Shown in pieces: positions 28,033-63,991 of a DNA stretch of 64,000 nucleotides. This DNA is from Caldilineales bacterium (GTDB taxonomy: Bacteria > Chloroflexota > Anaerolineae > J102), in the NCBI GenBank assembly GCA_037443945.1, contig JBBINH010000004.1, positions 64,976 to 128,975 of the forward strand, in the 5' to 3' direction. Under the pieces are notes generated by a model. It saw only the letters and a list, made by a program, of their open reading frames with translations. It did not search any database and had not been told where the DNA came from. How positions within the stretch are numbered: the first letter of the stretch is position 1; the number at the start of each line of letters is the position of its first letter. Made by a program: the position numbers and the translations under genes.

Positions 28033-28168
28033 CGCGGCCGGTTTGCAGCGGGTTGGCACCGGCGACCGGATGCGGTTATGATCCGGAGGCGTTCTTCGTC
28101 GGGCGGCATTGCCGGTCCGGGTTTTCGGTCCCTATCGCCCCGGTTTTCTCGGCTTCCGGAGGGATGCC

Positions 28169-29362
28169 ATGATTTTCGATCTCGTCTTTGAAGGCGGCGG
28201 TGCCAAAGGTATGAGCTTTGTCGGGGCCCTGGAGGCCTTCCAGGCACGCGGGCTGCGCTATGGTCGTTTGATGGGCACTTCGGCCGGCGCCATTATCGCC
28301 ACTTCGCTGGCCGCAGGCTACACCATCTCCGAAATCTACGAGGCCCTCAACGAGACGACGGCAGACGGTCAACCGGTGTTTGCCACGTTTCTGGCGCCGC
28401 CGCGCCCCTTCACCGAATCGGAGCTGGAGGCCAGCTCGCTACGCCGTTTTCTGGCCAGGGTGAACGTGCCCTTCCTGCCCGATTTCCTGGAACAACGGCT
28501 GGACGAGGCGATCGTGCGGGTTCTGGCGGGCGAACGATGGCGCGGGCTGTTGGCCTTTATCGAGCGCGGGGGCTGGTATTCGGCCGACCCCTTTGTGGCC
28601 TGGTTGCAACGCCGCCTCGATCAAGGCGAGTACAACGGGCATCCGCGGCGTTTCAGCGGCATGACACTGGCAGAGTTTTACCGGGCCACCGGTTACGATC
28701 TCACCCTCATCGCTGCCGATATCACTGCGAACAGGATGTTGGTGCTCAACCACCGCACGGCGCCCGATCTGCCGGTGGTATGGGCCGCGCGGATGTCCAT
28801 GAGCGTACCGCTGCTTTGGGAAGAGGTGCTATGGCAACGGGAATGGGGGTTGTATCGCGGTTGCGATCTGAGCGGACATGCCATTGTGGACGGCGGACTT
28901 TTGTCCAACTTTCCCATCGAGTTGTTCCTTTCGCAGGCGCCTCAGGTGACGGCCGTCATGGGAACGGGGCAGGGGCATGAGGTCCTGGGCTTTCTGATCG
29001 ACGAGGATCTGCCGGTTCCGGGTGCACCACCGCGTTTGCCCGCCGATGGGGATGGATTGAACCTAACGGAGCTGAACACGGTGCAGCGGCTGAAGCGTCT
29101 TGTGGATACGGCCATTCAGGCCCACGATAAGGCCGTGATCGAGGCCTTCGCCCATCTCGTTGTACGTCTGCCGGCACAGGGCTATGGCACAACCGAATTT
29201 GCCATGCCTCCGGAACGACGCCATGCCCTGATTGCTGCCGCCCGCGCGGTAACCCAGGCCTATTTGGATCGGCGCCTGGGTCCCATCGCCGGTGGGGAGG
29301 TCGAACCGTTGGACCCGGAAACCCTGGCTACAAAGCAGGCGCTGCGATGGTTGACCGAATGA
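28169..29362 (+). CDS. Patatin-like phospholipase.
   Basis: GGGAKG oxyanion motif and GTSAG serine lipase motif near the N-terminus. Confidence 0.75.
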   Translation: MIFDLVFEGGGAKGMSFVGALEAFQARGLRYGRLMGTSAGAIIATSLAAGYTISEIYEALNETTADGQPVFATFLAPPRPFTESELEASSLRRFLARVNVPFLPDFLEQRLDEAIVRVLAGERWRGLLAFIERGGWYSADPFVAWLQRRLDQGEYNGHPRRFSGMTLAEFYRATGYDLTLIAADITANRMLVLNHRTAPDLPVVWAARMSMSVPLLWEEVLWQREWGLYRGCDLSGHAIVDGGLLSNFPIELFLSQAPQVTAVMGTGQGHEVLGFLIDEDLPVPGAPPRLPADGDGLNLTELNTVQRLKRLVDTAIQAHDKAVIEAFAHLVVRLPAQGYGTTEFAMPPERRHALIAAARAVTQAYLDRRLGPIAGGEVEPLDPETLATKQALRWLTE

Positions 29363-36091: not shown

Positions 36092-38206
36092 TCAAGGCGT
36101 CTCCGCGGGGAACAGACGCAGCGCCGGATCGCCCAGGAGCGCAAAGGTGAGGAGGACATCTCGCTGTCCCCCCTGTCCGGGGTCGAGGCGGTGCAACGCT
36201 GCCCGCCAGGCCTCGCCAAGGGTGGCCTCATGAAAGAGATGATGGCCGAAAAGCGCCTGCGCCAGCACCTCCTGATCGCCGGGATAGGTTTCGGCCGTAG
36301 GCACCAAGGCCGCCACGATGCCGCTCGTGGGGCTCAGGACCAGCGCTTCGCCCAGGGATTGGCGTTGCGGATGGATGAAGTAGCCGCTGAGACAGGCCCA
36401 CATCAGCACAAGCCCGAGCCGATCTCCGGCCCGCAACTGCGCTACATCTTCCGTATGCAGGATGCCCTCTTGCGCCCATAAGTCGAGGGCGCCGTGTCCC
36501 ACGTAATTCAGCAGCCGTCGGCCTTCGTTTAGACTTTGTCGCAGAGCGACGCGCACATCGGCATCCACACCTATCGTCAGCGTCGTCGGGTGAAAGGCCT
36601 CCGGTAGGAGGGAAAGGAGACGGGCGTTGAAGTCGCGGAAGAAGGGGTCGTCATCATCGCTCACGAAGAGCATCTGCCGACGCCATGGGCCCGGCGGCAG
36701 CGCCTGCTCGTAGGTGAGCGTCTTGGCGACCATGGTGGCCACATCGGCCGGACTTTGCGCCGGAAAGCGGCCCACGGCCAGGTCGGGCCGTTCGTCGCCG
36801 TCCAGGTCGGCCAAGGCGGCGTCGCCTGCCGTTGCTCCTATGACTTGGGTGTGTACGGTGGCCGTCGGCACCAGGTTCTTGTAAGGTCCTTGCAGGTAGT
36901 CATAGGGATCATAACTGGCATCGCCTACCAGGAGTACAAAACGGGGCGTCGGCGGTGGCCATTCGGCTACGGCTTGGCGCAAAAAGGCCCTGATAGCCGC
37001 CGCCGTGAGGTGCCCGGCGCCGAACGCATCGGCAATTTGATCGGTGGTGACAAGCGCAGTGCGCAACCCCTGCTGTTGCCGCCAACGCAGGAGCGGTTCT
37101 ACCGCCGCCGTCAGGGAGGGATGGGCAATGGTGATATAATCGGCCCCGTCTGGGACGGCGGGAAGAGGCGCTATCGGCCGAATCGTGCGCGGGGACAACA
37201 ACGCCCCGGCGGTGGCCGCCCAATAGTGACCGGGGGTCTGGCTCGTCCGGCCAAAACGCAGCCGATAGCTCCCACCCATCTTGCTTACGAGGCCATCCGT
37301 CAGACGGCGTGGGGGCGTGGCGGCTACATCCCACAGCTCGATATCGGGGCCGGAAAACCCGCCGATCTCGACCACCGGCGCCGTGGTGACAAAGGCAATG
37401 GTGTCGTCTGTCGCCACCAGGCTACGGGTGTAGGTGATGACCACCCGGTTGAGATACATCAGTTCGACCGGCGCTCCGGTGTCGCCCGGCGCCGTCAGAC
37501 TCAGGATGTTCGAGCCTTCGCGCAGGGTGCCGGCGGGAACGGAGAGAACCAGGCGGCGGCGGCCGCGGCCATCCCAGGTCTCCTCGGCCAGAAAACGCCC
37601 GTTGAGGGCCAAACGCAGCCGATGGTCAGGCGCAACGGCCGCCTGGCTGGCCGACCACAGCTCGATGGCGAGCTGAGCCGGTTCGCTCGTCGGTCGGGAG
37701 AGCACGACTTCTGCGCTCAACTCGGCCGGCGCCAGCAGCCGATCACCCACCCAGGGGTCGCCCTCGGCGATGGCGGGCAGATAGGTGCGCCGGAACACGG
37801 CTTCCACGACGGCCAGCCCTGTCGTCGTCGCCGGCCCGCCGCGCGGCGGGGCCGGTTCGACCATCGCCACCTGACCCTGGGTCCGGCCGAGTCGATAAAC
37901 CGCCGGGCCTGCGGCCGGCACGCGACCGGGAAAACGCAACTCCCGGTTGCGGCCATGGCCGATGAGCGCAAAGGGCACCGGCCGGTTGCCGTCGTTCAGA
38001 GACAAAGCCTCGGCCTCCAGCCGGACCAAGTCCCAGCCGAAGGGCAGCAGATCGCGGCGCTCGAGGCGATAGAGCCCGTCCCGTTCGAGCACAAGGACCA
38101 AACCTTCGGCGGCCGGCGATGCCGGTGTGGGCCGGGCGCAGGCAACGGTTACCAGGCCGATGAGCAGGCTCCACACGATGCCGAGACGCCTGTAGACGGT
38201 GTTCAC
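36092..38206 (-). CDS. Secreted peptidase C25 (gingipain-type cysteine peptidase) family protein, paralog 1.
   Basis: N-terminal signal peptide. Catalytic-dyad context LLNYVGHGALDLW...(33 aa)...MWACLSGYF reproduces the gingipain His/Cys spacing. GTG start at 38204-38206 forms a GTGA overlap with the upstream gene stop; the longer ORF reaches 38242. Confidence 0.7.
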   Translation of the reverse strand: MNTVYRRLGIVWSLLIGLVTVACARPTPASPAAEGLVLVLERDGLYRLERRDLLPFGWDLVRLEAEALSLNDGNRPVPFALIGHGRNRELRFPGRVPAAGPAVYRLGRTQGQVAMVEPAPPRGGPATTTGLAVVEAVFRRTYLPAIAEGDPWVGDRLLAPAELSAEVVLSRPTSEPAQLAIELWSASQAAVAPDHRLRLALNGRFLAEETWDGRGRRRLVLSVPAGTLREGSNILSLTAPGDTGAPVELMYLNRVVITYTRSLVATDDTIAFVTTAPVVEIGGFSGPDIELWDVAATPPRRLTDGLVSKMGGSYRLRFGRTSQTPGHYWAATAGALLSPRTIRPIAPLPAVPDGADYITIAHPSLTAAVEPLLRWRQQQGLRTALVTTDQIADAFGAGHLTAAAIRAFLRQAVAEWPPPTPRFVLLVGDASYDPYDYLQGPYKNLVPTATVHTQVIGATAGDAALADLDGDERPDLAVGRFPAQSPADVATMVAKTLTYEQALPPGPWRRQMLFVSDDDDPFFRDFNARLLSLLPEAFHPTTLTIGVDADVRVALRQSLNEGRRLLNYVGHGALDLWAQEGILHTEDVAQLRAGDRLGLVLMWACLSGYFIHPQRQSLGEALVLSPTSGIVAALVPTAETYPGDQEVLAQALFGHHLFHEATLGEAWRAALHRLDPGQGGQRDVLLTFALLGDPALRLFPAETP

Positions 38207-39261
38207 GGCCCGTCTCTCCGGAGCGTGCGGCGATAGAACCATCCGCCGATGGCGATCAAAGCGCCGGCCACAGCCAAGGCGGCCAGACCGATGCGCACAA
38301 AAAGACCGGCTTCGCTTCCGTTCCGGTGCGAGGACGCCGCCGTTGTGGGCGGCAGACGCACGCCGAAGGCGTTGGGCGACGGGATCGATGTCACCCTCTC
38401 CGATGTGACGGTTATGGGCAACGAGACCGTTGCGGTCACGTCGGCGGCAAGCGTTGGCGCCGGCATCGCCGTGGGGGGCCGAGGTGAGGGCATCGGCGCC
38501 TCGACCCCGGCCGCAGGGGTGGACTCGACCACCGTCGGCGCCGTTGCGCCCGCACCGGGCATGGCCGTCGGTACGGGTGCGACCGTTGGCGGCACCGTGG
38601 GCGTGTCCCCAGGTCTATCCGCAGGGGGTGGCAGGGTCGAAGCCGATGTCGGCGTGGAGAGGAGCGATGGCGTGGCCGTTGATGGGGTTGGATCGGAGGT
38701 TACCGGTGTGGGTGTGGGCGTAGGCAGCGGGGTGGCCGTGGGTGAGGGTGTGGGCGTGGGTGTCGCCGTGGGCGAGGGTGTGGCCGTCGCCGTAGGGGAG
38801 ATGCGCACCGTCGGCGAAGGGGTCGGTGTGAGGGTAGGGAGAAGGGGGGTGAAGGTTGGCGTGGGTGTGGGGGGAGTAGCTCCGGGCAAGGATACCATCA
38901 CCGGGGGATGCGAAGTGAGTCGGCCGTAGCCGTCCATGTCGTCAAGCCGATACCAGTACGTATGGCCCGGCAGCACGGTGTTATCCTCGAAGCGATAATA
39001 GGCGCCTGTGACCACGTCCCCACGGGCCGGGATTTGATGGACCTGTTGCCAGGGCCCGTTTTCGTTCTCCGCGCGTTGGACCAGGAACAGCAGATTGTCG
39101 GGTTCGGTGGCCGTCTCCCACTCGATGAGAATACGCCTCGCTTCCGGCTGCGCCGTGGCTCGGAAGTAGAGCAGGGTCACACTGGCCTGGACCATGGCGG
39201 TCAGGGTCAGGTTCAAGCAAAACAGGCCGACGAGAACGGCAAGGCGCCGACCATACCTCAT
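38203..39261 (-). CDS. Pro/Thr-rich cell-surface protein: signal peptide, small beta (FN3-like) domain, long PT-rich linker, C-terminal TM helix with basic tail.
   Basis: N-terminal hydrophobic leader. More than 100 aa of PTPTPSPTATP low complexity. C-terminal LFVRIGLAALAVAGALIAIGGWFYRRTLRR anchor. Sandwiched in-operon between two C25 peptidase paralogs. Confidence 0.5.
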   Translation of the reverse strand: MRYGRRLAVLVGLFCLNLTLTAMVQASVTLLYFRATAQPEARRILIEWETATEPDNLLFLVQRAENENGPWQQVHQIPARGDVVTGAYYRFEDNTVLPGHTYWYRLDDMDGYGRLTSHPPVMVSLPGATPPTPTPTFTPLLPTLTPTPSPTVRISPTATATPSPTATPTPTPSPTATPLPTPTPTPVTSDPTPSTATPSLLSTPTSASTLPPPADRPGDTPTVPPTVAPVPTAMPGAGATAPTVVESTPAAGVEAPMPSPRPPTAMPAPTLAADVTATVSLPITVTSERVTSIPSPNAFGVRLPPTTAASSHRNGSEAGLFVRIGLAALAVAGALIAIGGWFYRRTLRRDGP

Positions 39262-39263
39262 GG

Positions 39264-41546
39264 CTAACGCAGGACAAGAGGCCAATAGAGGGCATCGGCC
39301 GGACCGGGCAGGCGCAAGGCCGGGTCGCCGAAGAGGGTCATGGTGTCGATCAGATAATGAGGGCCGCCGTGCTCCTGGTAGTAGGCCTGCTGTGCCGCCA
39401 GGAGGGCCTCACCCAGGGTGCGCCCGGCGTCGTCGAAGAGCGCCGCCATCAGCAATTGCCGAAAACGGTGCTGGTCGAGAGTCCAACCCAGCCCGGAGGG
39501 CGAAATGGCGGCAATGGCGCCGCCATCGGCCCGGCGCTGCATGACCTCGGCCAGGGCAAACAAACCGGGTTGAGGATGGGCAAAGTAGCCGTCCAAGCAA
39601 TTGAAGGTGAGGACAACCGGTAACCGCGGCGCATGAGGACTCAGTTGGGCTACATCAGCGGTCGTCCAGATCGATTCGTGGGCCCAGCGATTGGGCGCAC
39701 CGTGTCCAGCGTATTGGACCATAAACACGCCCGCGTTCAGGGCCGCGGCGATGGCCTGGCGCGCGGCGTCGCCGCTGGTCACCGTGCTCCCCAGATAAAC
39801 CCGTTGCGGGATCAGGTCGACCGGGACATGCGCGGCGATGATGGCATCGCTCAAGGCCGGAAAAGCGCCTGCCTCATCCTCGTTATCGGCCACGAACAAG
39901 ATACGGCGTTGCCAGAGCTCCCGGCGGCGGTCACCGTCGTAGGTCTCGATTTTGGCCACGACGGCTTCGGCTTCGGCCAGGGTATTGACGGCAATGCGGC
40001 CCACGGCCACATCGGGTAAACCGTCACCGTTGGCATCGCCGTAGCGGCTGTCGGCAGGCACCTCGCCCTGCCAGGGATCCACCCAAGCCAGGAAAGGCGG
40101 GACATGCTGCGGTTGGGGCGGGTAGAGGGCCGGATTGTAGCCCTTGAAGTTCCAATGGCCGTCGCCGAAGAGCACAAGATAGCGCGGTTTGGGTTCGGGC
40201 CAGTGGGTTTGGGCCCAGGCCAGCAGCGCCGGTATCGCCCGGGGATGGTTGATGCCGTCATGGAACTCGTCCACGGCATCGGCCCAGAGGACTACCCGCG
40301 CCGAACGACCCTGTCGCTCATGCCAGGCGGCCAGCCGTTGCGCCGCCGGGGCCAGTTCATCGGAGGTGACGATGACCACCTCATATCCCCTGTCCGGCGT
40401 CCGCAATCCGGTAGGCGGCCGCAGGCGCAGAGTGGCCGGCTGCCGGAACGTGGCCTCGTCCTGAAGCCAGTAGCGGGCACCGGCCCCGGCCCGGCTGCGA
40501 AAGCGCAGACCCTGGCCCACCGCGCCCGTCTCCGGCCGCGCACCCACCAGACGTTGCGGCCGGGTCGGATCGGTGATCTCCCAAATGGCGACCCGATGGG
40601 CCCGGTCCCAGCCATCGCTGGCGTACTCCTGAGGGCCATCCTGTTCGGTGGCGAAGGACAGCCACTCCTCCCAGGCGCGGAACAGGCGTCGGTACTCAAG
40701 CTGCCAATAGTTGACATAAAGCCAATCGGCCGATGTGGGCGGCAGGTTGAAGGCGCTGATGCTCACCTCGTTACGACCATGGGCGAACAGCGAGGCCGAA
40801 ACGGGCATGGTAAAGACGCGGGTCGTTTTGCCGGCCCAGGTGTAATCGCCCACCGGAGCGGTGCCAACGGCGATGCTCGTGCGGCGGTTGACCGCCGCGC
40901 GGCTGCTCAGTTCGACCGTGAGTCGAAAACGGCCTTGGGTGGCAGGGTAAGGCACGGTATAGGGCAATGTCACGGTGACTCCCTGGCCCACGCCCACCGG
41001 CCGCAGCTCGGCCCACAGCCAGGTATCGTAGGTGACCGGCGTGGCCGTGTGATAGGTGTACCAATAGCGGTTTTCCTCGGCCCGCACCACGGCGGCGAAA
41101 TCGGTTGGCGGCGCGCCATCACCCAGTGGGGTTGCCTCGATCTCGGTGATCCGTGGACCGGCCGCGGCGCCGATGTCGAGCCAGTAGACCCGTTCGTCGG
41201 TGTACTTTTCCACCATCGGATCCGCGCGCAAACGCTCGCCGAAGAACTCGATGCTATCGCCGGGATCAAAATGGCCGTCCGCCTCGCCGAGCACGCGTAT
41301 AGCGACCGGCTGACCCAGGCTGCTGAGGGCAAAAGTGCGGGGATCCACGGTCTCCACCGCCACCCCGGCCGTCCTCAGGTCCTCAGGGGTAAGGCGGTAG
41401 ATGCCGTCGGCCACGATGCCGATGCGCACGCGGATGACGGGCGTGGTCGCGTCGGCGGCCGATGCCTGTTGCGCCGTAGCCGGCAGGGTGAGAATAGGAC
41501 TGAACAGAAGGCCGATGAGCAGCGAGGCAACGATGGTGCTTCGCAT
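39264..41546 (-). CDS. Secreted peptidase C25 (gingipain-type) family protein, paralog 2.
   Basis: Signal peptide. MVQYAGHGAPNRW...(33 aa)...LTFNCLDGYF His/Cys dyad context. N-terminal domain similar to paralog 1. Confidence 0.7.
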   Translation of the reverse strand: MRSTIVASLLIGLLFSPILTLPATAQQASAADATTPVIRVRIGIVADGIYRLTPEDLRTAGVAVETVDPRTFALSSLGQPVAIRVLGEADGHFDPGDSIEFFGERLRADPMVEKYTDERVYWLDIGAAAGPRITEIEATPLGDGAPPTDFAAVVRAEENRYWYTYHTATPVTYDTWLWAELRPVGVGQGVTVTLPYTVPYPATQGRFRLTVELSSRAAVNRRTSIAVGTAPVGDYTWAGKTTRVFTMPVSASLFAHGRNEVSISAFNLPPTSADWLYVNYWQLEYRRLFRAWEEWLSFATEQDGPQEYASDGWDRAHRVAIWEITDPTRPQRLVGARPETGAVGQGLRFRSRAGAGARYWLQDEATFRQPATLRLRPPTGLRTPDRGYEVVIVTSDELAPAAQRLAAWHERQGRSARVVLWADAVDEFHDGINHPRAIPALLAWAQTHWPEPKPRYLVLFGDGHWNFKGYNPALYPPQPQHVPPFLAWVDPWQGEVPADSRYGDANGDGLPDVAVGRIAVNTLAEAEAVVAKIETYDGDRRRELWQRRILFVADNEDEAGAFPALSDAIIAAHVPVDLIPQRVYLGSTVTSGDAARQAIAAALNAGVFMVQYAGHGAPNRWAHESIWTTADVAQLSPHAPRLPVVLTFNCLDGYFAHPQPGLFALAEVMQRRADGGAIAAISPSGLGWTLDQHRFRQLLMAALFDDAGRTLGEALLAAQQAYYQEHGGPHYLIDTMTLFGDPALRLPGPADALYWPLVLR

Positions 41547-41629: not shown

Positions 41630-43450
41630 TTAGCCTGCCGTGGCAGCATGGGCCAGAGCACGCGCCTGCTCGATGTAAGCCAGGCTCTGGTGACGAAAGT
41701 AGGTGTTGTAGAGGAGGGCATAGTGCCCACCGCGGGCCAGTAGGGCCGCATGGTGACCTTCTTCGACGATGCGACCCTTTTCCAGGACGATGATGCGGTC
41801 GGCCGCTTTGACGGTGGAAAGCCGATGGGCGATGACGATGCTCGTCGCCCGCGCGAGCATCAGGGTCACGGCTTCCTGGATCTGACGCTCGGTAAAGGGG
41901 TCGATGCTGGCCGTCGCCTCGTCAAGGATAAAAATGGCCGGTTGCTGGACGAGCACCCGCATCAGCGCCACCAGCTGGCGTTGGCCCAGCGAGAGCCATG
42001 CCCCGCGCTCACCGACTTCGGTTTGCAACCCTTGGGGCAGGGCCTCCAGCCATTCGCCATCGCCGATCTGACGGGCCAGGGCCATGATCTCGGCATCGCT
42101 GACCTCCGGCCGGGCATAACGGATGTTATCGGCTACCGTGCCCGCAAAAAGGAAGGGTGTTTGCGGGACGATCCCCAGGCAACGGCGATAGGCTGCCAGA
42201 TCAAAGGAGCGGATGTCGTGCCCATCGATGAGGATGCGACCTTCCTGAAACTCGTAGAACCGGGCCAACAGTTTGATGACGGAAGACTTGCCGGCGCCGG
42301 TATGGCCCACCAGGGCCACACTTTCGCCGGCACGGATGTGCAGATTGAAATCGTCGAGAACCTGTTCCTGCTCGCTGTAGCGAAAGCAAACGTGTTCAAA
42401 GCGGATGTCCCCGCGCAGGTGGCCGGGTCGGCGATGCTCGCGTTGGACGACGGCGGGCTCGGCCTCGATAAGGGCGAAGATACGTTCCGCCGCCGCCAGA
42501 CCGGCCTGCACCTGGGCCGAAAACGCCGCCAGGTTGAGGACGGGGAAGAAGAAACGCTCCAGGCTGCCGAGGAAGAGATACCAGGCGCCGGCGGTCACAA
42601 CCCCCGCCACCACGCTACGGCCGCCTGCCCATACGAACAAGGCCACGATGATACCGGACAGAGCATTGAGGATGGGGAAGACGCTGGCCAGCACCAACCC
42701 CCGGCGGACATTGACGGCATAGGAACGACGGTTGGCCGCGTCGAAATCGGCGTAGATGGCGCTCTCCTGCCGATAGTTTTTGGCCACGGCGATCCCGCTG
42801 ATGCTTTCCTTGATCCTGGCATTGACCACGGCCATGGCCTGCATCCCGCGGCGGGTCACCCGGCGCATCAGCCGCCGCAGGCTGCTGGCCGTGATGAAGA
42901 TGAGCGGGATGGTGGCAAAGAGATAGAGGCTAAGCTGCAGGTCAATGGCGATCAGCAAGCCTGCCAGCAGCAGGGCCTCGATGAGATGGGAGAGGGTGTC
43001 GGTGAGGAGCACGACAACATCGCCGAAGTCTTTGCTATCGGAGGTGATGCGCGAAACGATGCGACCGGAGGCATAGCGGTCGTAGAACGAGAGGTCATGG
43101 CGCACGGCCGCCGCCACGGCGGTGGTGCGGAGTTCGAAGACCACCTGGGCCAAGACGCGCGTGCTCAGCCGTCGCCGCCACCAATTCGTCGCCCAACTCA
43201 GGATACCGGAAGCCAGGACGGCCACCATGATCAGGGCGATCACCGGCGTTGTCGATCGCTTCTGGATCAGGTCCACCCCCCAGGCGACGATGACGGGCAA
43301 GGCGGCACCCGTCACGGCGATGGTGAGGAGAAGCAGGGCGATGAGCAGCAGCGACCGCCGGTGGGGTCGGAAGTAGCGCCACATGCCTCGGATCAGCGTG
43401 CGGTCGTCATACTGGCGGTCGTAGGCTTCGACATCGAGATGGCCGAACAT
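41630..43450 (-). CDS. ABC transporter, fused permease/ATP-binding (type I exporter half-transporter).
   Basis: 6-TM N-terminal domain. Walker A GHTGAGKSS, signature LSLGQRQ, Walker B ILDEATASID. Confidence 0.8.
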   Translation of the reverse strand: MFGHLDVEAYDRQYDDRTLIRGMWRYFRPHRRSLLLIALLLLTIAVTGAALPVIVAWGVDLIQKRSTTPVIALIMVAVLASGILSWATNWWRRRLSTRVLAQVVFELRTTAVAAAVRHDLSFYDRYASGRIVSRITSDSKDFGDVVVLLTDTLSHLIEALLLAGLLIAIDLQLSLYLFATIPLIFITASSLRRLMRRVTRRGMQAMAVVNARIKESISGIAVAKNYRQESAIYADFDAANRRSYAVNVRRGLVLASVFPILNALSGIIVALFVWAGGRSVVAGVVTAGAWYLFLGSLERFFFPVLNLAAFSAQVQAGLAAAERIFALIEAEPAVVQREHRRPGHLRGDIRFEHVCFRYSEQEQVLDDFNLHIRAGESVALVGHTGAGKSSVIKLLARFYEFQEGRILIDGHDIRSFDLAAYRRCLGIVPQTPFLFAGTVADNIRYARPEVSDAEIMALARQIGDGEWLEALPQGLQTEVGERGAWLSLGQRQLVALMRVLVQQPAIFILDEATASIDPFTERQIQEAVTLMLARATSIVIAHRLSTVKAADRIIVLEKGRIVEEGHHAALLARGGHYALLYNTYFRHQSLAYIEQARALAHAATAG

Positions 43451-43453
43451 GGG

Positions 43454-45250
43454 CTATTCCGCAAAAAGACGACGATAGGCGGGCGAAGTCCGCAAGAGGG
43501 TTTCGTGGTCCCCCATGGCAGCGATGCGTCCTTTGCGCAGGACGATGATCCGATCGGCCCAGCGGATTTGCGAGAGGCGGTGGGTGATGATCAACGTCGT
43601 GCGCCCGCGTGCGGCGGCGTAGATGGCCTGTTGGATTTTGTCTTCGGTAGCGCTGTCAATGGAGCTGGTCGCGTCATCGAGGATGAGGATGCGCGGATCG
43701 GTCAGAAAGGCGCGGGCCAGGGCCAGGCGCTGGCGCTGACCACCCGAGAGGGTGACCCCACGCTCGCCGACGACGGTGTCGTAGCCGTCTTTGAAGGCCA
43801 TAATGAAGTCATGCGCCTGGGCGGCGCGGGCGGCGGCTTCGATCGCCGCTCGCGTGGCGTCGGGTTTGCCAAAGGCGATATTTTCGGCAATGGTGCGCGA
43901 GAAGAGGAAGATATCCTGCTCGATCACGGCAATCTGGCGGCGCAGGGCCTCCAGGTTCCAATCGCGCACGTCCACACCGTCGATGCATACCCGCCCGGCG
44001 CCCACGTCGTAGGTGCGATTGACCAGTTTGACCAGGGTGGTTTTACCGGCGCCGGTCTGGCCGACAATGGCCACGGTCTGGCCCGGCGCCACGGTAAAGG
44101 AAATATCATGGAGCACCGGTTCGCCGTCTTCTTCGTAAGCGAAGGTCACGCCCTCGAAGGCAATATGACCGACCATCGGTTGCGCATAGCCGGTCGGGTT
44201 CTGGTCCAGATGGGTTTCACGGTTGATCAGGTCGAGGATGCGCCGGGCAGCGGCCAGACCCGACGAGACCTGCGAATAGGCGAAAAGGGAAACAAAGGTC
44301 GGAAAGTTCAGCATCTGCAAAAGGCCGAAGTAGGCGACCACATCACCGACGGTCAGCCATCCCCGATGCAACAGGAACAAAGCATGGCCCAGGCCGGCGG
44401 CCGCAGCCATGCCCAAAAACAGTAAGGGCAGAAAACGGGCTTCGACATTGCCCTGCCGCACCAGAGCACGACGAAAGGCTCCGGCGGCCTCGGCGAAGCG
44501 GCGGACCTCGGCCTCTTCCTGGACCGCCGCCTTGACCGTCTCAATGCCGTCCAGGACCTCGGCCAGGCGGGCGTTCATCCGACCGAAACGGGCCCGCACC
44601 TCATCGGTGATAGGGCGCAATTCGCGCAGATAGTGGGCCAGGGCCAGCACATAGAACACGATATACACGGCCGGTGTGATAACCAGGGCCGGATGGTAGC
44701 GCAGGGCCAGGAACAACGGCATGAACAAGAAAAAGCCCGAGCCGACAACCAGGTTGAGGCCGGGGTTGAACATCAGGTTGATCTCGCGCACGTCGTTGGT
44801 GGCGCGGGCCATGGTATCGCCTATCGGCTGCAGACTATGAAAGGTCATGCTCTTGCCCAACAGGCTGACATACAGCTCCTGGCGGATATCCCGTTCCAGG
44901 CGTTGACCGATCATCTCGGCACCGCCGTTGCGTCCGAATTGCAGCACGCTGCGGGCCAATTGCGTGGCGATGATCCACAACGCCGCCCGTCCGATGGCCG
45001 GGATATCCGGCGGCCTTTGCAGGACGGCATTGAAAGCCAGGCCGGTGTAGATCGGGATGGCTGCGGCCAGGGCGGCATTGCTGAAAGCGCCGATAAGCAT
45101 CACCACCCCCCATGGCCAGTGGCGCAGGCTATGGAAGAGCAACCAGCGCACGGCCCCGCGACGGTCGCTGCGATAGGGCAGGTGGAGGGTGAACTCGGCC
45201 GAAGCGGTGGCAGGGGTCATGGCAGCGTTACCGGATAAACCCGTTATCAT
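43454..45250 (-). CDS. ABC transporter, fused permease/ATP-binding (partner half-transporter; likely heterodimeric exporter).
   Basis: Walker [10 protein letters not shown], signature LSGGQRQ, Walker [12 protein letters not shown]. 4-nt gap to the downstream paralog. Confidence 0.8.
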
Positions 45251-57319: not shown

Positions 57320-57844
57320 CTACGATGCCAGCGCCTTGACCAGCTCGCGGTTGAAGGCGGGGATATCCGGCACCACGCGACCCCAGACGATGTTGCCGTC
57401 GCGGAAGGCGGCCTCATCCACCCAGGTGGCCCCGGCGTTGATGAGGTCGTCTTTGATGCCCAGCGAACCCGTGGCACGGTGTCCGGCCACAATGCGGGCA
57501 GAAATGCCCACAAGGCCGGCATGACAGATCATGCCTACGATTTTGCCCTGCTCGTAGAGGCCTCGGACCAGAGACGTGACCGCTTCGTAGCGGCGCAGTT
57601 TATCGGGCGCCCAGCCGCCGGGAATGACGACGGCATCGAACCGATCCGGGTCGACATCGGCGGCCGCCACCTCGGCCGCGGCTGTCAGGCCACCGCTTTT
57701 GCTGCGATAGACCTCGCCCGCCTTCAGCCCCACCACGGTCACCTGCGCGCCCTCCTCCAGCAAGCGCATGTAAACCGCCCAAAATTCCAGGTCCTCAAAC
57801 TCGGGACCGACCAAAAAGGCAATCCGTTTGCCGGTTAGCAGCAT
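57320..57844 (-). CDS. DJ-1/PfpI-family protein.
   Basis: Nucleophile-elbow ICHAG and overall PfpI pattern. Confidence 0.8.
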   Translation of the reverse strand: MLLTGKRIAFLVGPEFEDLEFWAVYMRLLEEGAQVTVVGLKAGEVYRSKSGGLTAAAEVAAADVDPDRFDAVVIPGGWAPDKLRRYEAVTSLVRGLYEQGKIVGMICHAGLVGISARIVAGHRATGSLGIKDDLINAGATWVDEAAFRDGNIVWGRVVPDIPAFNRELVKALAS

Positions 57845-57893: not shown

Positions 57894-58127
57894 ATGAAAA
57901 TCAAAACCTCGATCACCCTTTCCGCCGACCTGCTCAGGGCCGTGGATGCCCACGCCGAGCAAACCGGCCAGAACCGCTCCGAATTCATCGAGACGGCCGT
58001 GCGCGCTTTTGTGCAGCAACTGGAACGGGCCGAACAACACACCGCCGACCTGATCCGCATCAACCGGCATGCCGAAGCCCTCAACCGCGCTACCCTGGCG
58101 GCCTTGGGCCAGGAGGAGATCGGGTGA
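57894..58127 (+). CDS. Ribbon-helix-helix (CopG/MazE-like) antitoxin.
   Basis: 77 aa; N-terminal beta-strand TSITLSADLLRAVD typical of RHH. Immediately precedes and overlaps the toxin gene. Confidence 0.6.
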   Translation: MKIKTSITLSADLLRAVDAHAEQTGQNRSEFIETAVRAFVQQLERAEQHTADLIRINRHAEALNRATLAALGQEEIG

Positions 58128-58441
58128 AACGGGGGGAAATCTACCGGCTGCAGCGCCAGGGACGACGGCCGACCTTATTCGTGATCCTCAGCCGTCAGGC
58201 GGTGTGCGATTCGGCCTATGCCACCGTCATCTGTGCACCGATCCTGGATACCTACATCGGTCTGCACACCCAGGTGCCGTTGCACGCGGAAAAAGGAACG
58301 ACGCCCTGGGGATGCATTCATCTGGATGCCCTGGTCAGTCTGCCCAAGGCCTGGCTGACCGACTGCGTGGCCGTGCTCACACCGGCCAAACTGGCCGAGG
58401 TCGAACGGGCACTGCGCTTGGCCCTGGATTTGCCGGATTAG
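58124..58441 (+). CDS. mazF: MazF/PemK-family endoribonuclease toxin.
   Basis: RGEIY...RPTLFVILS...TVICAPI pattern. 4-bp overlap with the antitoxin. Confidence 0.7.
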   Translation: MKRGEIYRLQRQGRRPTLFVILSRQAVCDSAYATVICAPILDTYIGLHTQVPLHAEKGTTPWGCIHLDALVSLPKAWLTDCVAVLTPAKLAEVERALRLALDLPD

Positions 58442-59070
58442 ACCTCGGTGCACGAGGGGCAACCCTCGACATCCTGAACCACGGCCAGGGTTGCGGCCGT
58501 TATCCGAGCCGGGTCCGTCTCGCGAAAACCGACGGCGCCACAACGACGACAGGCATACCAGCCCATCGTCAGCGCTGCCCAGGGCAGGGCCGGTGCCAGG
58601 TCGATGACCTCGACATCCAGGTGCCAGCGCGCATTCGTGATCAACCGGCGACAGCCGGCCGCGCGTAACCGGGCCACATAATGGCGATAGTGGCGACAGT
58701 GGCGCATCAGCAACACGGCCACGGTGACCCCGGATGGAATGGGCGTCAGGCGGGCATCGGTACACACCACCTCCAGATTGGCAGGCAGTGGTTCCGTGGC
58801 CAACGCCAGGACCTCAGGCCGTCGTTCCCAGGCGATCACACGCCGGGCTATGGCGGCCATCCGGCGCGCCAGGCGTAGGTCGCCGGCGCCGATGTCCAGC
58901 ACCACATCCTCCGGCCCGATGGCGGCCAACACGGCCTGATAGGTGACCTCATCATAGGGCGCCCAGGCCGCCTCCCAGGGATCGAGGAGGGGCGCGCCGG
59001 CGACCGTCGTCTCCGGGCTTAGGCCATGCGCGCCATGCGGAAGAGCCACAGGGCCAGAAACACCCCCCAT
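58438..59070 (-). CDS. Class I SAM-dependent methyltransferase-like protein.
   Basis: Motif I VVLDIGAGDLRLARR. Start ambiguous: ORF start at 59070 overlaps sdhD-like gene by ~50 nt; a GTG near 59004 avoids the overlap. Confidence 0.45.
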   Translation of the reverse strand: MGGVSGPVALPHGAHGLSPETTVAGAPLLDPWEAAWAPYDEVTYQAVLAAIGPEDVVLDIGAGDLRLARRMAAIARRVIAWERRPEVLALATEPLPANLEVVCTDARLTPIPSGVTVAVLLMRHCRHYRHYVARLRAAGCRRLITNARWHLDVEVIDLAPALPWAALTMGWYACRRCGAVGFRETDPARITAATLAVVQDVEGCPSCTEV

Positions 59071-59393
59071 CCCACGATAATAACGCCGACGACGGTCAGG
59101 ACTTGCGTGACAAGCCCTTTCTGTCGTTCGTTCAACGGCAGGTCGAACAGGATGGCGCGCACACCCACCATGGCATGATACGTCACCACCACCAGGAACA
59201 GGATCTCGATGGTGACCACCAGCGGGTTACCGATGTAGTCCAGCACCTGTTCGTAGGTGCGCAGCCCTCCCTCCACCACGAAATGATGGACGATCATGTG
59301 CAGCGAGAGCAAGATGACCAACAAAACCCCGGTGATGGCCTGCCCGATCCATGTCCCCGATCGGCGTTTTTCTTCGATGCTGCGCATAGTCAC
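59019..59393 (-). CDS. sdhD: Succinate dehydrogenase-type hydrophobic membrane anchor subunit (SdhD-like).
   Basis: 124 aa, three TM helices. Immediately follows the SdhC-like gene (2-nt spacing). Confidence 0.55.
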   Translation of the reverse strand: MTMRSIEEKRRSGTWIGQAITGVLLVILLSLHMIVHHFVVEGGLRTYEQVLDYIGNPLVVTIEILFLVVVTYHAMVGVRAILFDLPLNERQKGLVTQVLTVVGVIIVGWGVFLALWLFRMARMA

Positions 59394-59394
59394 C

Positions 59395-59793
59395 TCACTT
59401 GCTGAAGACCAGCCAGCCGCTATAAACCAGGAGAAGCAAGGCCACGGCCATCAAAGTCCAGAAAAGGCCTTTGTGCGATTGCGTGCCGAAACCCAGGCCG
59501 ATGATCGTCACCCGCAGGCCGTTGAGCATGTGGATAAGAATGCCGGCGATCAAGACGACATCCAGAGCCAACACCCAGGGTGCCTTCATGGTCTGGATCA
59601 GGCTATCCCAGCCGGCTGGTCCGCGCAGCAGATTGCCGATCACCACCATGTGCAGCAACAGATACACCACCAGACCGATACCGGTAATGCGCATCAGCAC
59701 AAAGGCCAGAAACCCGGCCGAACGTTTGAGGGGATTGAACCACGCCTGCACGACGCGGGCAACGGGTGATTTGTGGGGCATGGGCATGGCCAT
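59395..59793 (-). CDS. sdhC: Succinate dehydrogenase-type cytochrome b subunit (SdhC-like).
   Basis: Three TM helices with MRITG / His-containing segments. Start set at first Met after the sdhB stop (alternative starts 59781-59793). Confidence 0.6.
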   Translation of the reverse strand: MAMPMPHKSPVARVVQAWFNPLKRSAGFLAFVLMRITGIGLVVYLLLHMVVIGNLLRGPAGWDSLIQTMKAPWVLALDVVLIAGILIHMLNGLRVTIIGLGFGTQSHKGLFWTLMAVALLLLVYSGWLVFSK

Positions 59794-59803
59794 AGGGCTT
59801 TGC

Positions 59804-60568
59804 TTATCCTCCCTTGAAGAAACGCTTGACCTTGGCGACCACCAACTCACGACGCAAGGCCATGATTTTGTGGCCCGGATTCACATCGCTGGGACACACG
59901 GCGCTGCACTCCATGGCGCTGTGGCAACGCCAAACCCCGTTATCGTGGTCCACATCGGCAAAGACCTCGGCCGGGCTGCGCTCGCCTGTTACCAGGGCCC
60001 GATAGGCAGCGGCCAATCCGGCCGGACCGATGAACGCCGGGTTGGTATTGGCCACCGGACAGGCCGACAGACAGAGATTGCATTCAATGCAGTCTTCGTA
60101 ACGGCTAAACCGCTCGACCCCGGGGGGCGTTTCGGCCTCGGGGTTGAACTCGCTGGCCCGCACCAGCCGCATGCCGGCCGGCGCAAAATGCCCGGCAAAC
60201 GGCGTCATATCCACAACCAGGTCGGCGATCGGCGGCGCCGCTGCCAGCGGTTCCACCACGACCACATCGCCGCCCTGCTCGAGCAACCGGGCCACGCAGC
60301 CCAACTGTTCGCGGCCGTTGATGCGCATGCCGCACGTGCCGCAAGAGGCATGATGACAGGAATGGCGATAGAGCAAGGTGCCGTCCTGGGTTGCCCGGAT
60401 CTCCTCCAGCGCATCCAGCACCGTGGTCACGGCATTGGCCTGAACTTGAAAGGTGTCATAGCGCGGGGGATCGATGGTGCCCGGTTTGTAACGCCAAACC
60501 TTGAGTGTAATCGTTTTATTTTGGCCAAAAAGCCCGTTGTTATTCATAACAACATGCTCTTTTCGCAC
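59804..60568 (-). CDS. sdhB: Succinate dehydrogenase/fumarate reductase iron-sulfur subunit (SdhB/FrdB family).
   Basis: 2Fe-2S motif CHHASCGTCGMRING...C, 4Fe-4S CIECNLCLSACP, 3Fe-4S CHSAMECSAVCP. Confidence 0.85.
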   Translation of the reverse strand: MRKEHVVMNNNGLFGQNKTITLKVWRYKPGTIDPPRYDTFQVQANAVTTVLDALEEIRATQDGTLLYRHSCHHASCGTCGMRINGREQLGCVARLLEQGGDVVVVEPLAAAPPIADLVVDMTPFAGHFAPAGMRLVRASEFNPEAETPPGVERFSRYEDCIECNLCLSACPVANTNPAFIGPAGLAAAYRALVTGERSPAEVFADVDHDNGVWRCHSAMECSAVCPSDVNPGHKIMALRRELVVAKVKRFFKGG

Positions 60569-60668
60569 TGATTGTAACTATACTGTCCAATACAGACTCA
60601 TCGGCTTGTGAGTCGCAAAAATGGATGATTTTAAGCGATTCGCAAATCGCCTGCTTGGCTATTGCGTT

Positions 60669-61835
60669 TTACTGATAATAAGCCCAATAAGGCAATAAAA
60701 CGACGTCTTTCGTCCGACACGGGGCATCAATGCCCAATTTGGCACAGACCACATCGGCCGTGGCCTCGGCCATGGCGCGCATGGTCGTGCCTTTGCCGCC
60801 GGAGATGGTAACCAGACCTTCGACCCCATCGCGCACCTTGTGGTCGAAGCACTTGAACGTGCGGGGCAGGGCGCGGCCTTCCTGGGCGCTGCCTTCGGCG
60901 ATCAACGGCCGGGCCGCCGACCAGGCCGCCCGCATGGGGGCATGGCGCACCGCCGGGATCAGCTCGCCGCCCTTCTCAAACATCAGCCGGACATGGTCTT
61001 CGGGCAGGCCTAACCGGTCCGGGTCCTCAACCGTCCACGATGTCGTGCCGATGACCGATAGCCCCCGCTGGGGCACGATGATGTCTCCGTCCGAGGGCTT
61101 GTTGAGGCGGTTGATGACCATGTTGCACCAGCGCCCGCGCACGGCGACCATCACGCCCGGCGTCGGCTTGACAGGCACGCGTGCCCCTGCCATCTCGCTG
61201 ACCTTTTCGGCCCAGGCGCCTGTGGCATTGACCACGATGTCGGCTTTGATGTCGTATTCCTGGCCTGTCACGTGGGAACGCACCCGCACGCCGGTCACGA
61301 TCCCGGCCGTGCGCAACATGCCGATAACCTCGGTATAGGGACGGATGTCGGCGCCGTTGTGTTTGGCCGTGGCAAAAAAGCGCATGGGCAACCGCCAGCA
61401 GTCCATCGTCGCATCGGGGACCTGCACCCCCAGTTTGACCTGGGGATTGATATGGGGCTCCAGGCGTTTGACCTGTTGGGCCGTCAGCACCCGGGTGGGA
61501 ATATGGCAGGCTTCGCAGCCGGCCAGGAATTTCTCCAGGTAAGCCACGTCGTCATCGGTAATGGCCACGAACAGGCCGTCGTTCTCCTCAAACGAACCGG
61601 GCGCGATCTTGCGCAGGATCCGGTTCTCTTCGATGCATTCGATGGCCGACTCTTGATCGTTGACGGCGTAGCGACCGCCGCTATGCAACAGACCGTGATG
61701 CCGACCCGCCGTCCCCGATGTCAGTTCGCCACGCTCCACCAAGGTGACTTTCAGACCGCGCAGGGTCAGGTCGTGGACCAGAGCCGCTCCGGTGGAACCA
61801 CCGCCGATAACCACCACATGGAATTGGGTTGCCAT
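60669..61835 (-). CDS. glpA: Glycerol-3-phosphate dehydrogenase flavoprotein, GlpA-like (lacks C-terminal BFD-like domain).
   Basis: VVIGGGSTGAA FAD motif. Extended colinear similarity to E. coli GlpA (GRHHGLLHSGGRYAVNDQESAIECIEENRIL; RLNKPSDGDIIVP; VTISGGKGTTMR). Confidence 0.8.
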   Translation of the reverse strand: MATQFHVVVIGGGSTGAALVHDLTLRGLKVTLVERGELTSGTAGRHHGLLHSGGRYAVNDQESAIECIEENRILRKIAPGSFEENDGLFVAITDDDVAYLEKFLAGCEACHIPTRVLTAQQVKRLEPHINPQVKLGVQVPDATMDCWRLPMRFFATAKHNGADIRPYTEVIGMLRTAGIVTGVRVRSHVTGQEYDIKADIVVNATGAWAEKVSEMAGARVPVKPTPGVMVAVRGRWCNMVINRLNKPSDGDIIVPQRGLSVIGTTSWTVEDPDRLGLPEDHVRLMFEKGGELIPAVRHAPMRAAWSAARPLIAEGSAQEGRALPRTFKCFDHKVRDGVEGLVTISGGKGTTMRAMAEATADVVCAKLGIDAPCRTKDVVLLPYWAYYQ

Positions 61836-61897
61836 AGCTCAAGAGAAAAGGGGGATCGGCATCGGCCGACGCCGATCCCCACGGCGTGGAAAACGCT

Positions 61898-63391
61898 TTA
61901 TTCGTCCAGCCAGTTCATCGAGCGTTGTACGGCCTTTAGCCAGCCCTTGTACAGGCGGCTGCGGGTCTCCTCGTCCATCTTCGGCTCGTAGACCTTGTCC
62001 ACCTGCCAGTTCTGGCGCAGGTCTTCCAGGTTGTTCCAATAGCCGACGGCCAGACCGGCGGCGTAGGCGGCACCTAGGGCCGTGGTCTCGGCCACCTTCG
62101 GCCGCACGACGGGCACGTTGAGGATGTCGGACTGGAACTGCATCAACGTGTCGTTGTAGACCATACCGCCATCCACCTTCAGCGCCGTCAACTTGACGCC
62201 GGAGTCTTTCTCCATGGCATCCAGCACCTCGCGGGTCTGATAGGCGGTGGCTTCCAGGGCTGCCCGGCAGATGTGATACTTGTTGATGTAGCGGGTCAGG
62301 CCGATGATAAGGCCGCGCGCCGAGGACTGCCAGTAGGGAGCAAACAGACCGGAGAAGGCGGGGACGAAGTAGATGCCGCCGCTATCCGGTACCTGCTTGG
62401 CGTAGTCCTCGATGTGTTTGGAGAAATCGAAGAAGTCCAGATTATCGCGCAGCCATTGCACCAGGGCGCCGGTAATGGCGATGGAGCCTTCCAGGCAGTA
62501 GACGGCCGGTGCATCGCCCATCTTGTAGCCCAGGGTGGTGAGCAAACCGCTCTTGCTGGGCACGGGCGAGGTGCCGGTGTTGAGGAGCATGAAGCAGCCG
62601 GTGCCATAGGTGTTCTTGGCTTCGCCGACACCGAAGCAGGTCTGGCCGACGAGCGCCGCTTGCTGATCGCCCAGGTCACCGCAGACCGGCACGCCGTTCC
62701 AGTAGCCGTAAATCTTGGGGTCGCTGGAGGGGCGAATTTCCGGCAACATCTGCCGCGGGATGCCCAGAATCCCCAGGATCTCCTCGTCCCAATCCAGGGT
62801 TTCCAGGTTCATGAGCATCGTGCGGCTGGCGTTGGAGACATCGGTGACATGGGCGCCACCGTTGGGCCCACCGGTCAGGTTCCAAATGACCCAGGTGTCG
62901 ATGTTGCCGAAGAGCGCGTCCCCGCGTTCGGCCGCCGCACGGACGCCCTCGACGTTATCGAGGATCCATTTGATCTTGGGGCCCGAGAAGTAGGTGGCCA
63001 GCGGCAAGCCGACCTTGGGGCGGAAGCGATCCTGGCCGCCCTCCTTGGCCAGCTCATTGCAGATTTTGTCGGTGCGGGTGTCCTGCCAGACGATGGCGTT
63101 GTAGTAGGGCTTGCCCGTGTTCTTGTTCCAGACGATGGTGGTCTCCCGCTGGTTGGTGACCCCGATAGCGGCCAGCTCGGCTGGGGTCAGACCGGCCCGA
63201 CGCAGCGCGACCTGCATCACCTCGTTAGTGCGGTCCATGATTTCCATCGGGTTGTGTTCAACCCAGCCGGCTTGAGGATAGATTTGCTCGTGTTCGAGCT
63301 GATGAATGCCGACCACATTGCCGCCATGGTCGAAGATCATAAAGCGGGTACTGGTTGTCCCCTGATCGACTGCAGCAACGTATTTAGCCAT
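61898..63391 (-). CDS. glpK: Glycerol kinase.
   Basis: N-terminus [21 protein letters not shown] and FGGY-family pattern throughout. Confidence 0.9.
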
Positions 63392-63469: not shown

Positions 63470-63991
63470 CTATTCCTTGTTTTTGTTGGCGAAGCAATCG
63501 GCAGCGCAGCGGAAGAGCAAATAGGACGACGTTGCACCGGGATCCTGGTGGCCGATGCTGCGTTCACCCAGATAGCTGGCCCGGCCTTTGGTTGCCAACA
63601 TGGGGATGGTGGCTTTCATGCCTTCTTCGGCTGCCTGCGCGGCCTGTTGCAGGGCGACGGCAAAGGGCTGCCCGGCTTCCAGGGCGCGGCGAAGGGCCTG
63701 GCAGGCCGGGGTCAGCGCATCGACCATGGTCTTCTCGCCGATGGTGGCTTTGCCGCGCTGCTGCACTCCGGCGAGACCGGCCTCCAACGCCGCCAGGAAT
63801 TCCAACGGTGAGAGTTCCATCTTGCCGTCGGTCGTGGCGCCGGCCCGCATGAAGAAGGTGCCGTAAAGGGGACCGCCGGCTCCACCGACCGTCGCCACCA
63901 GGGTCATTCCCGTCATCTTGAGGATGGCACCGATGTCCTTTTCGGCCACGGTCGGCATCTTGGCCAACACGGCGGCAAAACCGCGATCCAT
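63470..63991 (-). CDS. dhaL: Dihydroxyacetone kinase subunit L (DhaL); N-terminus may extend beyond window end.
   Basis: GGAGGPLYG ADP-binding motif and helical DhaL pattern. ATG at 63989-63991 but no upstream stop within the window. Confidence 0.7.
   Translation of the reverse strand: MDRGFAAVLAKMPTVAEKDIGAILKMTGMTLVATVGGAGGPLYGTFFMRAGATTDGKMELSPLEFLAALEAGLAGVQQRGKATIGEKTMVDALTPACQALRRALEAGQPFAVALQQAAQAAEEGMKATIPMLATKGRASYLGERSIGHQDPGATSSYLLFRCAADCFANKNKE

Follow-up and report, generated by a model that had tools for sequence, protein, structure and literature searches.

A truncated GlpA encoded beside complex II-type iron–sulfur and anchor subunits: a probable chimeric glycerol-3-phosphate:menaquinone oxidoreductase in Chloroflexota and other bacteria

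The DNA analysed here is a 64-kb stretch (64,000 nucleotides; hereafter the window) of contig JBBINH010000004.1 from a Caldilineales bacterium of the phylum Chloroflexota (assembly GCA_037443945.1). Between positions 59019 and 63391, where the preliminary description had placed them, lie the genes glpK-glpA-sdhB′-sdhC′-sdhD′, in this order and all on the minus strand: a glycerol kinase gene, a shortened gene for a glycerol-3-phosphate (G3P) dehydrogenase flavoprotein, and three genes of the kind that encode the iron–sulfur subunit and membrane anchors of succinate dehydrogenase (SDH, complex II). We consider it likely that short glpA, sdhB′, sdhC′ and sdhD′ specify a single membrane-bound enzyme, a chimeric G3P:menaquinone oxidoreductase that provides the respiratory step of the glycerol operon. 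The case is built from gene content, the truncation of glpA, conservation of cofactor ligands, synteny, tight spacing, co-evolution and the absence of an SdhA-type partner nearby; from these we infer the physical docking of GlpA on SdhB′, the direction of electron flow and its acceptor, the number of haems and the quinone site.

In the proposed scheme glycerol would be phosphorylated by GlpK, and the short GlpA would oxidise G3P to dihydroxyacetone phosphate (DHAP) on non-covalently bound FAD. Rather than pass electrons through a BFD-type [2Fe-2S] domain of its own to GlpB and GlpC, the short GlpA would dock on the SdhB-type subunit. Electrons would then run from FAD through the [2Fe-2S], [4Fe-4S] and [3Fe-4S] clusters of SdhB′ to the six-helix anchor formed by SdhC′ and SdhD′, where haem b would serve the reduction of menaquinone. 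Given the established potentials (about −190 mV for G3P/DHAP and about −74 mV for menaquinone) the transfer from G3P to menaquinone is exergonic.

A shortened GlpA flavoprotein

The short glpA gene (60669..61835, minus strand) encodes a protein of 388 aa with the features of an FAD-dependent G3P dehydrogenase core. It matches positions 1–376 of the 530 positions of the family model TIGR03377 (E 2e-139), with a score of 465 that falls under the cutoff of 553 because the remainder of the model is missing. Identity to Escherichia coli GlpA is 43% across residues 11–386. The E. coli protein comprises a DAO domain (10–359) and a BFD-like [2Fe-2S] domain (432–484); the window protein stops ∼10 residues past the core, at the equivalent of E. 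coli residue ∼396, and the BFD-like domain is absent. Short GlpA ends in an aromatic tail (LLPYWAYYQ). The preliminary description of a GlpA-like flavoprotein without its C-terminal extension is thus borne out: with the core intact and the [2Fe-2S] domain missing, the protein is, to judge from its sequence, a G3P dehydrogenase core that no longer has an exit cluster of its own.

The equivalents of GlpD R54, Y55, T270, R317, R332 and K354, which from the GlpD structure we take to be substrate-site residues, are invariant in all 71 of the aligned family members. The protein is not of the GlpD type: NF008899 gives 98 bits against a cutoff of 360, and E. coli GlpD aligns no further than the core, the GlpD-type cap domain (∼110 residues beyond it) being absent. 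No transmembrane (TM) segment was predicted in window GlpA. Its FAD domain also scores on PF00890, the family of the SdhA FAD domain (E 2.5e-7). The surface that SdhB normally meets is therefore remotely homologous, and docking on the same face is plausible.

An SdhB-type subunit and its membrane anchors

The gene sdhB′ (59804..60547, minus strand, with its ATG at 60547) encodes an SdhB/FrdB-type iron–sulfur subunit of 247 aa containing Fer2_3 and Fer4_8 domains. It scores 179 bits on TIGR00384, over the cutoff, and aligns full length with E. coli FrdB and SdhB (1kf6_B, 1nek_B; E 1e-36 for FrdB). As first proposed, the motifs of all three clusters are there: the ligands C-x4-C-x2-C-x11-C, C-x2-C-x2-C-x3-CP and C-x5-C-x3-CP, which cover [2Fe-2S], [4Fe-4S] and [3Fe-4S], are present in SdhB′ and invariant in its clade.

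Two signatures mark this clade. At the first [2Fe-2S] ligand it has an invariant R-H-S-C-H-H-x-x-C-G-T-C (here RHSCHH) where canonical SdhBs have S-C-R-x-G-x-C-G-S-C; the second signature is C-I-E-C-G-x-C-x-S-A-C-P. Because the part of SdhB around the first [2Fe-2S] ligand sits near the flavoprotein in complex II, RHSCHH would fit an altered surface toward the partner. The clade signature recurs in ∼50 clusters (50% identity) among the top 150 representatives. Canonical SdhBs are at most 39% identical to SdhB′; one of them, a Nonomuraea gene beside SdhA, was the best match (39%) in a plasmid collection in which no GlpA-linked SdhB′ was found.

Natural fusions join SdhB′ to SdhC′ (L018, 6001–7137; L024, L054 and P0122), to both anchors in a protein of 571 aa (P0136) and, in one representative (P0173), to a GlpC/HdrD-type CCG domain. 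No fusion of GlpA with SdhB′ was found: the fusions seen were SdhB′–SdhC′, SdhB′–C′–D′, SdhC′–D′ and SdhB′–CCG, the SdhC′–SdhD′ case (L047) being an apparent one.

SdhB-like genes were also met in other settings. On the Thermus thermophilus plasmid pAA3-7b (L092, 4512–7023) an orphan SdhB-like gene, with no SdhA, is flanked by a ferredoxin and an NAD(P)/FAD-dependent oxidoreductase, and on Haloferax gibbonsii pHGLR1 (L093, 4522–5726) another orphan directly follows a gene annotated ‘CGCGG family rSAM-modified RiPP protein’. The SdhB module seems to have been reused beyond complex II as well.

The two anchor genes follow sdhB′ on the minus strand: sdhC′ (59395..59793, 132 aa) and sdhD′ (59019..59387, 122 aa) each encode three predicted TM helices and each match PF01127 (Sdh_cyt; E 1e-13 and 3e-13, respectively). 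Histidines H48 and H88 of SdhC′ are invariant in 72 sequences (100%), as are H30, H35 and H71 of SdhD′ in 69 (100%). SdhC′ H88 aligns with H84 of E. coli SdhC and SdhD′ H71 with H71 of E. coli SdhD, both ligands of haem b556, so that the haem-ligand histidines of the two heme-b-type anchors originally proposed are kept. The extra invariant histidines sit toward the outer ends of the TM1 helices, the geometry expected in menaquinone-type dihaem enzymes. For this reason the two-subunit, six-helix anchor probably holds, besides one haem b, a second, distal haem.

Conservation of the glpA–sdhB′ pair

The distribution of the genes was assessed with a genome scan using an SdhB′ profile. The best 80 species-level loci are all bacterial and all belong to the GlpA-linked clade, with identities of 42–88%: 59 are from Chloroflexota, 16 from Actinomycetota and five from metagenome-assembled genomes (MAGs) of Desulfobacterales or other Deltaproteobacteria. 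The nearest named relatives are Caldilineales MAGs (Chloroflexota), in which SdhB′ is 80–88% and GlpA 93–97% identical. Short glpA stands immediately 5′ of sdhB′ in 76 of the 80 loci. In two of the remaining four glpA is rearranged inside the cluster, one runs into the end of its contig, and one (L029) is a true exception that is considered below. Adjacency of glpA and sdhB′ is far beyond chance.

The two genes are also tightly spaced: the median gap is 11.5 bp, 57 of 82 loci have gaps of ≤30 bp, and overlaps of 4 bp are frequent. The median gap between glpK and glpA is 158 bp. The distance matrices of GlpA and SdhB′ correlate with r = 0.87 (46 loci); the corresponding values are 0.59 for GlpK–GlpA and 0.51 for GlpK–SdhB′. 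GlpA and SdhB′ co-evolve.

The smallest version of the arrangement is found in Desulfobacterales MAGs (L043, L048, L075 and L077), which have short glpA and sdhB′ only, 150–600 bp apart, downstream of an M20 peptidase gene and with unrelated genes around; glpK and the anchors are both missing. Since these genomes keep the pair alone, short GlpA plus SdhB′ is the conserved core. Together with synteny and co-evolution, the pair supports the original proposal that G3P electrons would be wired through an SDH-type Fe-S/haem-b module.

The wider context bears on what such a complex would do. In most loci, as in the window, the genes lie within a glpF-dhaKL-glpK cluster. An actual complex with a different job is nonetheless conceivable, be it oxidation of another phosphorylated polyol or a 2-hydroxy acid, or menaquinol-driven reduction of DHAP to supply G3P for lipids. 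The Desulfobacterales copies, without glpK and glpF nearby, would suit such a role, as would a module (L081) that stands beside HAD phosphatases and a divergent FGGY kinase (42% identical to GlpK), and SdhB′ is marginally nearer E. coli FrdB than SdhB. However, the presumed substrate-site residues are the same in 71 of 71 family members, the glycerol cluster surrounds the genes in the window and most loci, and reduction of DHAP by menaquinol is thermodynamically uphill on the established potentials. We regard a different job as unlikely.

Missing partners and a separate succinate dehydrogenase

Partners of both parent enzymes were sought by tblastn with E. coli SdhA, GlpB, GlpD and GlpC as queries. 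With SdhA nothing matched at E≤1e-3, either in the window or across the 85 loci taken together with flanks of 6–8 kb. GlpB had no match in the window, nor was a second GlpA or GlpD found there. The GlpC query matched only through its N-terminal ∼80 ferredoxin-like residues, and that match is inside SdhB′. The lack of a nearby SdhA, GlpB or GlpC partner, as initially reported, therefore holds for the window. GlpB and full-length GlpC are likewise absent from the other loci, with one exception: in a Streptosporangiaceae MAG (L083, 4818–11790) the chimeric cluster is followed within ∼2 kb by a canonical, full-length glpA and by glpB and glpC, and both types of G3P dehydrogenase are thus side by side in one genome.

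A cultured organism, Thermoflexus hugenholtzii JAD2, also carries the cluster (genes 2143740357–2143740367), annotated as glpF-dhaK-dhaL-glpK-glpA-sdhB-sdhC-(no KO)-(no KO)-pfpI-dhaM, where KO is a KEGG orthology assignment (PMC8129789, Table 4). The KEGG module for prokaryotic SDH (M00149) is 100% complete in all Thermoflexus genomes analysed (PMC8129789). Within ∼75% of the T. hugenholtzii gene list there is no sdhA and no sdhD KO, the cluster's own sdhD′ being without one. The cluster has no sdhA, and its sdhD′ is not recognised as such; M00149 being complete all the same, at least an sdhA and a further anchor gene should be present in another part of the genome. This is indirect and fits a separate canonical operon, which may include a second sdhB.

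These observations bear on a further alternative, namely that two independent enzymes are encoded side by side: short GlpA, as a peripheral protein, would reduce quinone on its own, and SdhB′C′D′ would serve a succinate:quinone or quinol:fumarate oxidoreductase (SQR/QFR) with an SdhA from another locus. In favour of this, an sdhA is evidently present in the T. hugenholtzii genome. Against it, sdhD′ has no KO and yet the module is complete, which points to an anchor gene other than that of the cluster. A truncated archaeal GlpA does reduce quinones without a partner, as the Sulfolobus acidocaldarius G3P dehydrogenase does in vitro (PMC11962113), and our scan may have missed a promoter in the window's 121-bp spacer between glpA and sdhB′. 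The exceptional locus L029 is also in keeping with independence: an SdhB′ with the RHSCHH signature (5923–6711) has no glpA or anchors within 6 kb and lies just 3′ of genes for methylmalonyl-CoA mutase and an oxaloacetate-decarboxylase-like protein, that is, beside succinate/propionate-pathway genes. Yet SdhA is missing from the 6–8 kb around all 85 loci, glpA is directly 5′ in 76 of 80 with frames that overlap or nearly touch, and GlpA and SdhB′ co-evolve. Moreover, Desulfobacterales keep the pair without anchors and without a tricarboxylic acid cycle context, and RHSCHH differs from canonical SdhB. Two independent enzymes are, on this evidence, decidedly improbable.

Several points nevertheless weigh against a single chimeric complex, L029 among them. 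Contact between a GlpA and an SdhB is, here as elsewhere, a prediction. DAO-family flavoproteins do not have the helical and C-terminal domains of SdhA, and these domains contribute to the SdhA–SdhB interface. A canonical sdhCDAB in the same genome is indicated indirectly, and through T. hugenholtzii only. Finally, the transcript structure in the window is uncertain, given the 121-bp AT-rich spacer and a strong hairpin before glpA.

That the arrangement is a product of chance or decay, an sdh remnant without sdhA that landed beside glpA and has no function, has the odd spacer of this lineage and nothing else in its favour, and conservation effectively refutes it: every cofactor ligand is intact and strongly conserved across three phyla, the clade signature recurs in the ∼50 clusters noted above, and a second genome (L090, GCA_037441015.1) has a contig 99.6% identical to the window with identical gene calls.

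Relation to known enzymes

The chimeric complex proposed here can be set against both of its parents. With complex II it shares the SdhB fold, the three cluster motifs and two three-helix Sdh_cyt anchors, and the extra TM1 histidines of SdhC′D′ recall dihaem forms; type A complex II is the menaquinone-type enzyme with two anchors and two haems. Unlike complex II it has no SdhA/FrdA (FAD_binding_2 plus Succ_DH_flav_C), the partner being a DAO-family G3P enzyme, and its SdhB′ carries the RHSCHH motif. SdhB′ also differs from E. coli SdhB in being without the ubiquinone-site Trp (CPVANTNP versus CPSFWWNP).

With E. coli GlpABC it shares a homologous catalytic subunit (43% identity in the core) with the same substrate-site residues; in GlpABC flavin electrons pass through Fe-S clusters to menaquinone, as is predicted for the enzyme described here. 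The differences lie in what follows the flavin. GlpA has no BFD-like [2Fe-2S] domain and there is no GlpB; in place of GlpC, a peripheral protein with 2x[4Fe-4S] plus CCG domains, there would be an SdhB-type three-cluster subunit and integral haem-b anchors.

The preliminary description held that the arrangement was not classically described. For bacteria this appears to stand: our search of the literature for a bacterial glpA with SdhBCD, and for complex II modularity, returned only a paper on Sulfolobus (PMC11962113), which states that bacterial glpA is consistently accompanied by glpB and glpC (Schmerling et al., Commun Biol 2025). The arrangement is not wholly undescribed, however, because the same work proposes, from synteny, a ‘GlpA-SdhBCD’ type of G3P dehydrogenase for Thermofilum pendens and relatives (Fig. 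9b; PMC11962113). The likeness is close: a truncated GlpA is followed by SdhB/C/D counterparts in a glycerol-kinase context, and the Sdh-like subunits are likewise proposed to transfer electrons and to anchor the enzyme in the membrane (PMC11962113). The Thermofilum case is archaeal and known from gene order, and it is by the description of gene order that we liken the two; the genes reported here are bacterial and widespread. Transfer within a single family could account for the bacterial and Thermofilum genes, and so could two captures that converged.

A second archaeal system, GlpA-CoxG of S. acidocaldarius, is similar in that GlpA is truncated and GlpBC is swapped for a membrane device encoded immediately downstream (PMC11962113). 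CoxG, in contrast, has no redox cofactors and serves as an anchor only, and quinone is reduced by the flavoprotein itself (PMC11962113), whereas a full Fe-S/haem wire is predicted here.

Our case therefore belongs to a kind already predicted; what is new is that it is bacterial, widespread and modular, and apparently represents an unreported bacterial enzyme class. A broader view, on which we are evenly divided, is that short GlpA/SdhB′ constitutes a widespread and unrecognised class of bacterial G3P dehydrogenase, the first in which a complex II Fe-S subunit serves a DAO-family flavoprotein. SdhB′ would then be a universal adaptor with interchangeable outputs: an SdhC′D′ anchor, probably dihaem, in Chloroflexota and Actinomycetota; in some members a CCG domain fused to it; and in Desulfobacterales, which have no anchor, a different acceptor. 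On this view the version in Thermofilum would have arisen by transfer from the bacterial pool or by independent capture.

If the chimeric enzyme is real, the Fe-S/haem-b half of complex II is portable: as a module it can reduce quinone on behalf of a flavoprotein whose substrate is unrelated to that of SdhA. This would bear on how respiratory dehydrogenases are assembled from parts, and would add a fourth bacterial route from G3P to the quinone pool beside GlpD, GlpABC and GlpO. To a bioenergeticist such a chimera would come as no shock, given the known modularity of such enzymes; it is nonetheless a clean and testable case, and one with an annotation pitfall. The cluster is frequent in Chloroflexota and is found in Actinomycetota MAGs as well, and because KEGG and PGAP label its genes sdhB and sdhC (as in T. 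hugenholtzii), metabolic reconstructions of Chloroflexota MAGs can overcount SDH and miss the respiratory step of glycerol use. The prediction can be tested directly, since there is a cultured carrier of the cluster, T. hugenholtzii JAD2.

Spacer, hairpin and neighbouring genes

The spacer between glpA and sdhB′ (60548..60668, minus strand, 121 bp) has a G+C content of 42% against ∼62% in the window, and is an outlier in the family. Caldilineales relatives have spacers of 76 and 136 bp that are unrelated in sequence, and the window spacer is not conserved in L006 or L053. A promoter in this AT-rich gap would have spoken for separate transcription of the two halves; a scan of the 121 bp for consensus promoters and terminators gave no match, and the spacer is specific to the lineage. 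With no promoter match and no conservation of sequence, we rejected the spacer as a conserved regulatory feature and do not read it as a regulatory boundary, although this particular strain could conceivably have an internal promoter there. At the corresponding position of L006 (1929–2007), GTTACTAGT/GTTACTGGT-like repeats form a palindromic run of 76 bp.

Between glpK and glpA lies a terminator-like site (61851..61880, minus strand): a 13-bp G+C-rich hairpin and, after it, the T-rich tail CTTTTCTCTT. The glpA ATG is 15 nt downstream, which leaves no room for a promoter after the hairpin. L006, L001 and L053 have this hairpin or its equivalent after glpK. No Rfam family was found in this hairpin or in the glpA–sdhB′ spacer. 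The putative element may be a partial terminator or may affect mRNA stability, and may set the ratio of kinase to dehydrogenase transcript.

Upstream on the same strand, glpK (61898..63391) encodes a glycerol kinase of 497 aa (TIGR01311, 736 bits, over the cutoff; FGGY_N and FGGY_C), and is preceded by dhaL (63470..63991), the gene for subunit L of dihydroxyacetone kinase (Dak2; TIGR02365, 199 bits), whose 5′ end is beyond the window. In the nearly identical L090 contig the genes upstream of glpK are glpF (MIP), dhaK and dhaL.

Downstream, sdhD′ is followed on the minus strand by a methyltransferase-like gene (58438..59070, 210 aa; weak Methyltransf_25/RrnaAD matches), which is found 3′ of sdhD′ in many Chloroflexota loci, and by a gene for a DJ-1/PfpI family protein (57320..57844, minus strand, 174 aa; PF01965 on the identical gene in L090). 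Copies of the latter that are 61–93% identical occur downstream in many loci, and T. hugenholtzii has one in its cluster, annotated pfpI. The two genes adjoin after sdhD′ in L001 (11661–12755) and other relatives; here an RHH antitoxin and PemK/MazF-like toxin pair (57894–58441, plus strand) is inserted between them. A DhaM-type phosphotransferase system fusion (EIIA-HPr-EI) often comes next in Chloroflexota clusters. DJ-1/PfpI proteins include glyoxalases, and one might speculate that this neighbour would fit detoxification of methylglyoxal formed from DHAP.

Elsewhere in the window are a glycerate kinase-type gene (DUF4147 plus MOFRL) and a patatin-like phospholipase gene (16552–17892 and 28109–29362), which may relate to lipid or glycerol turnover. 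Two large paralogous Peptidase_C25 (gingipain-family) genes are found close together on the minus strand (36092–38242 and 39264–41546), followed by two ABC exporter genes (41630–45250).

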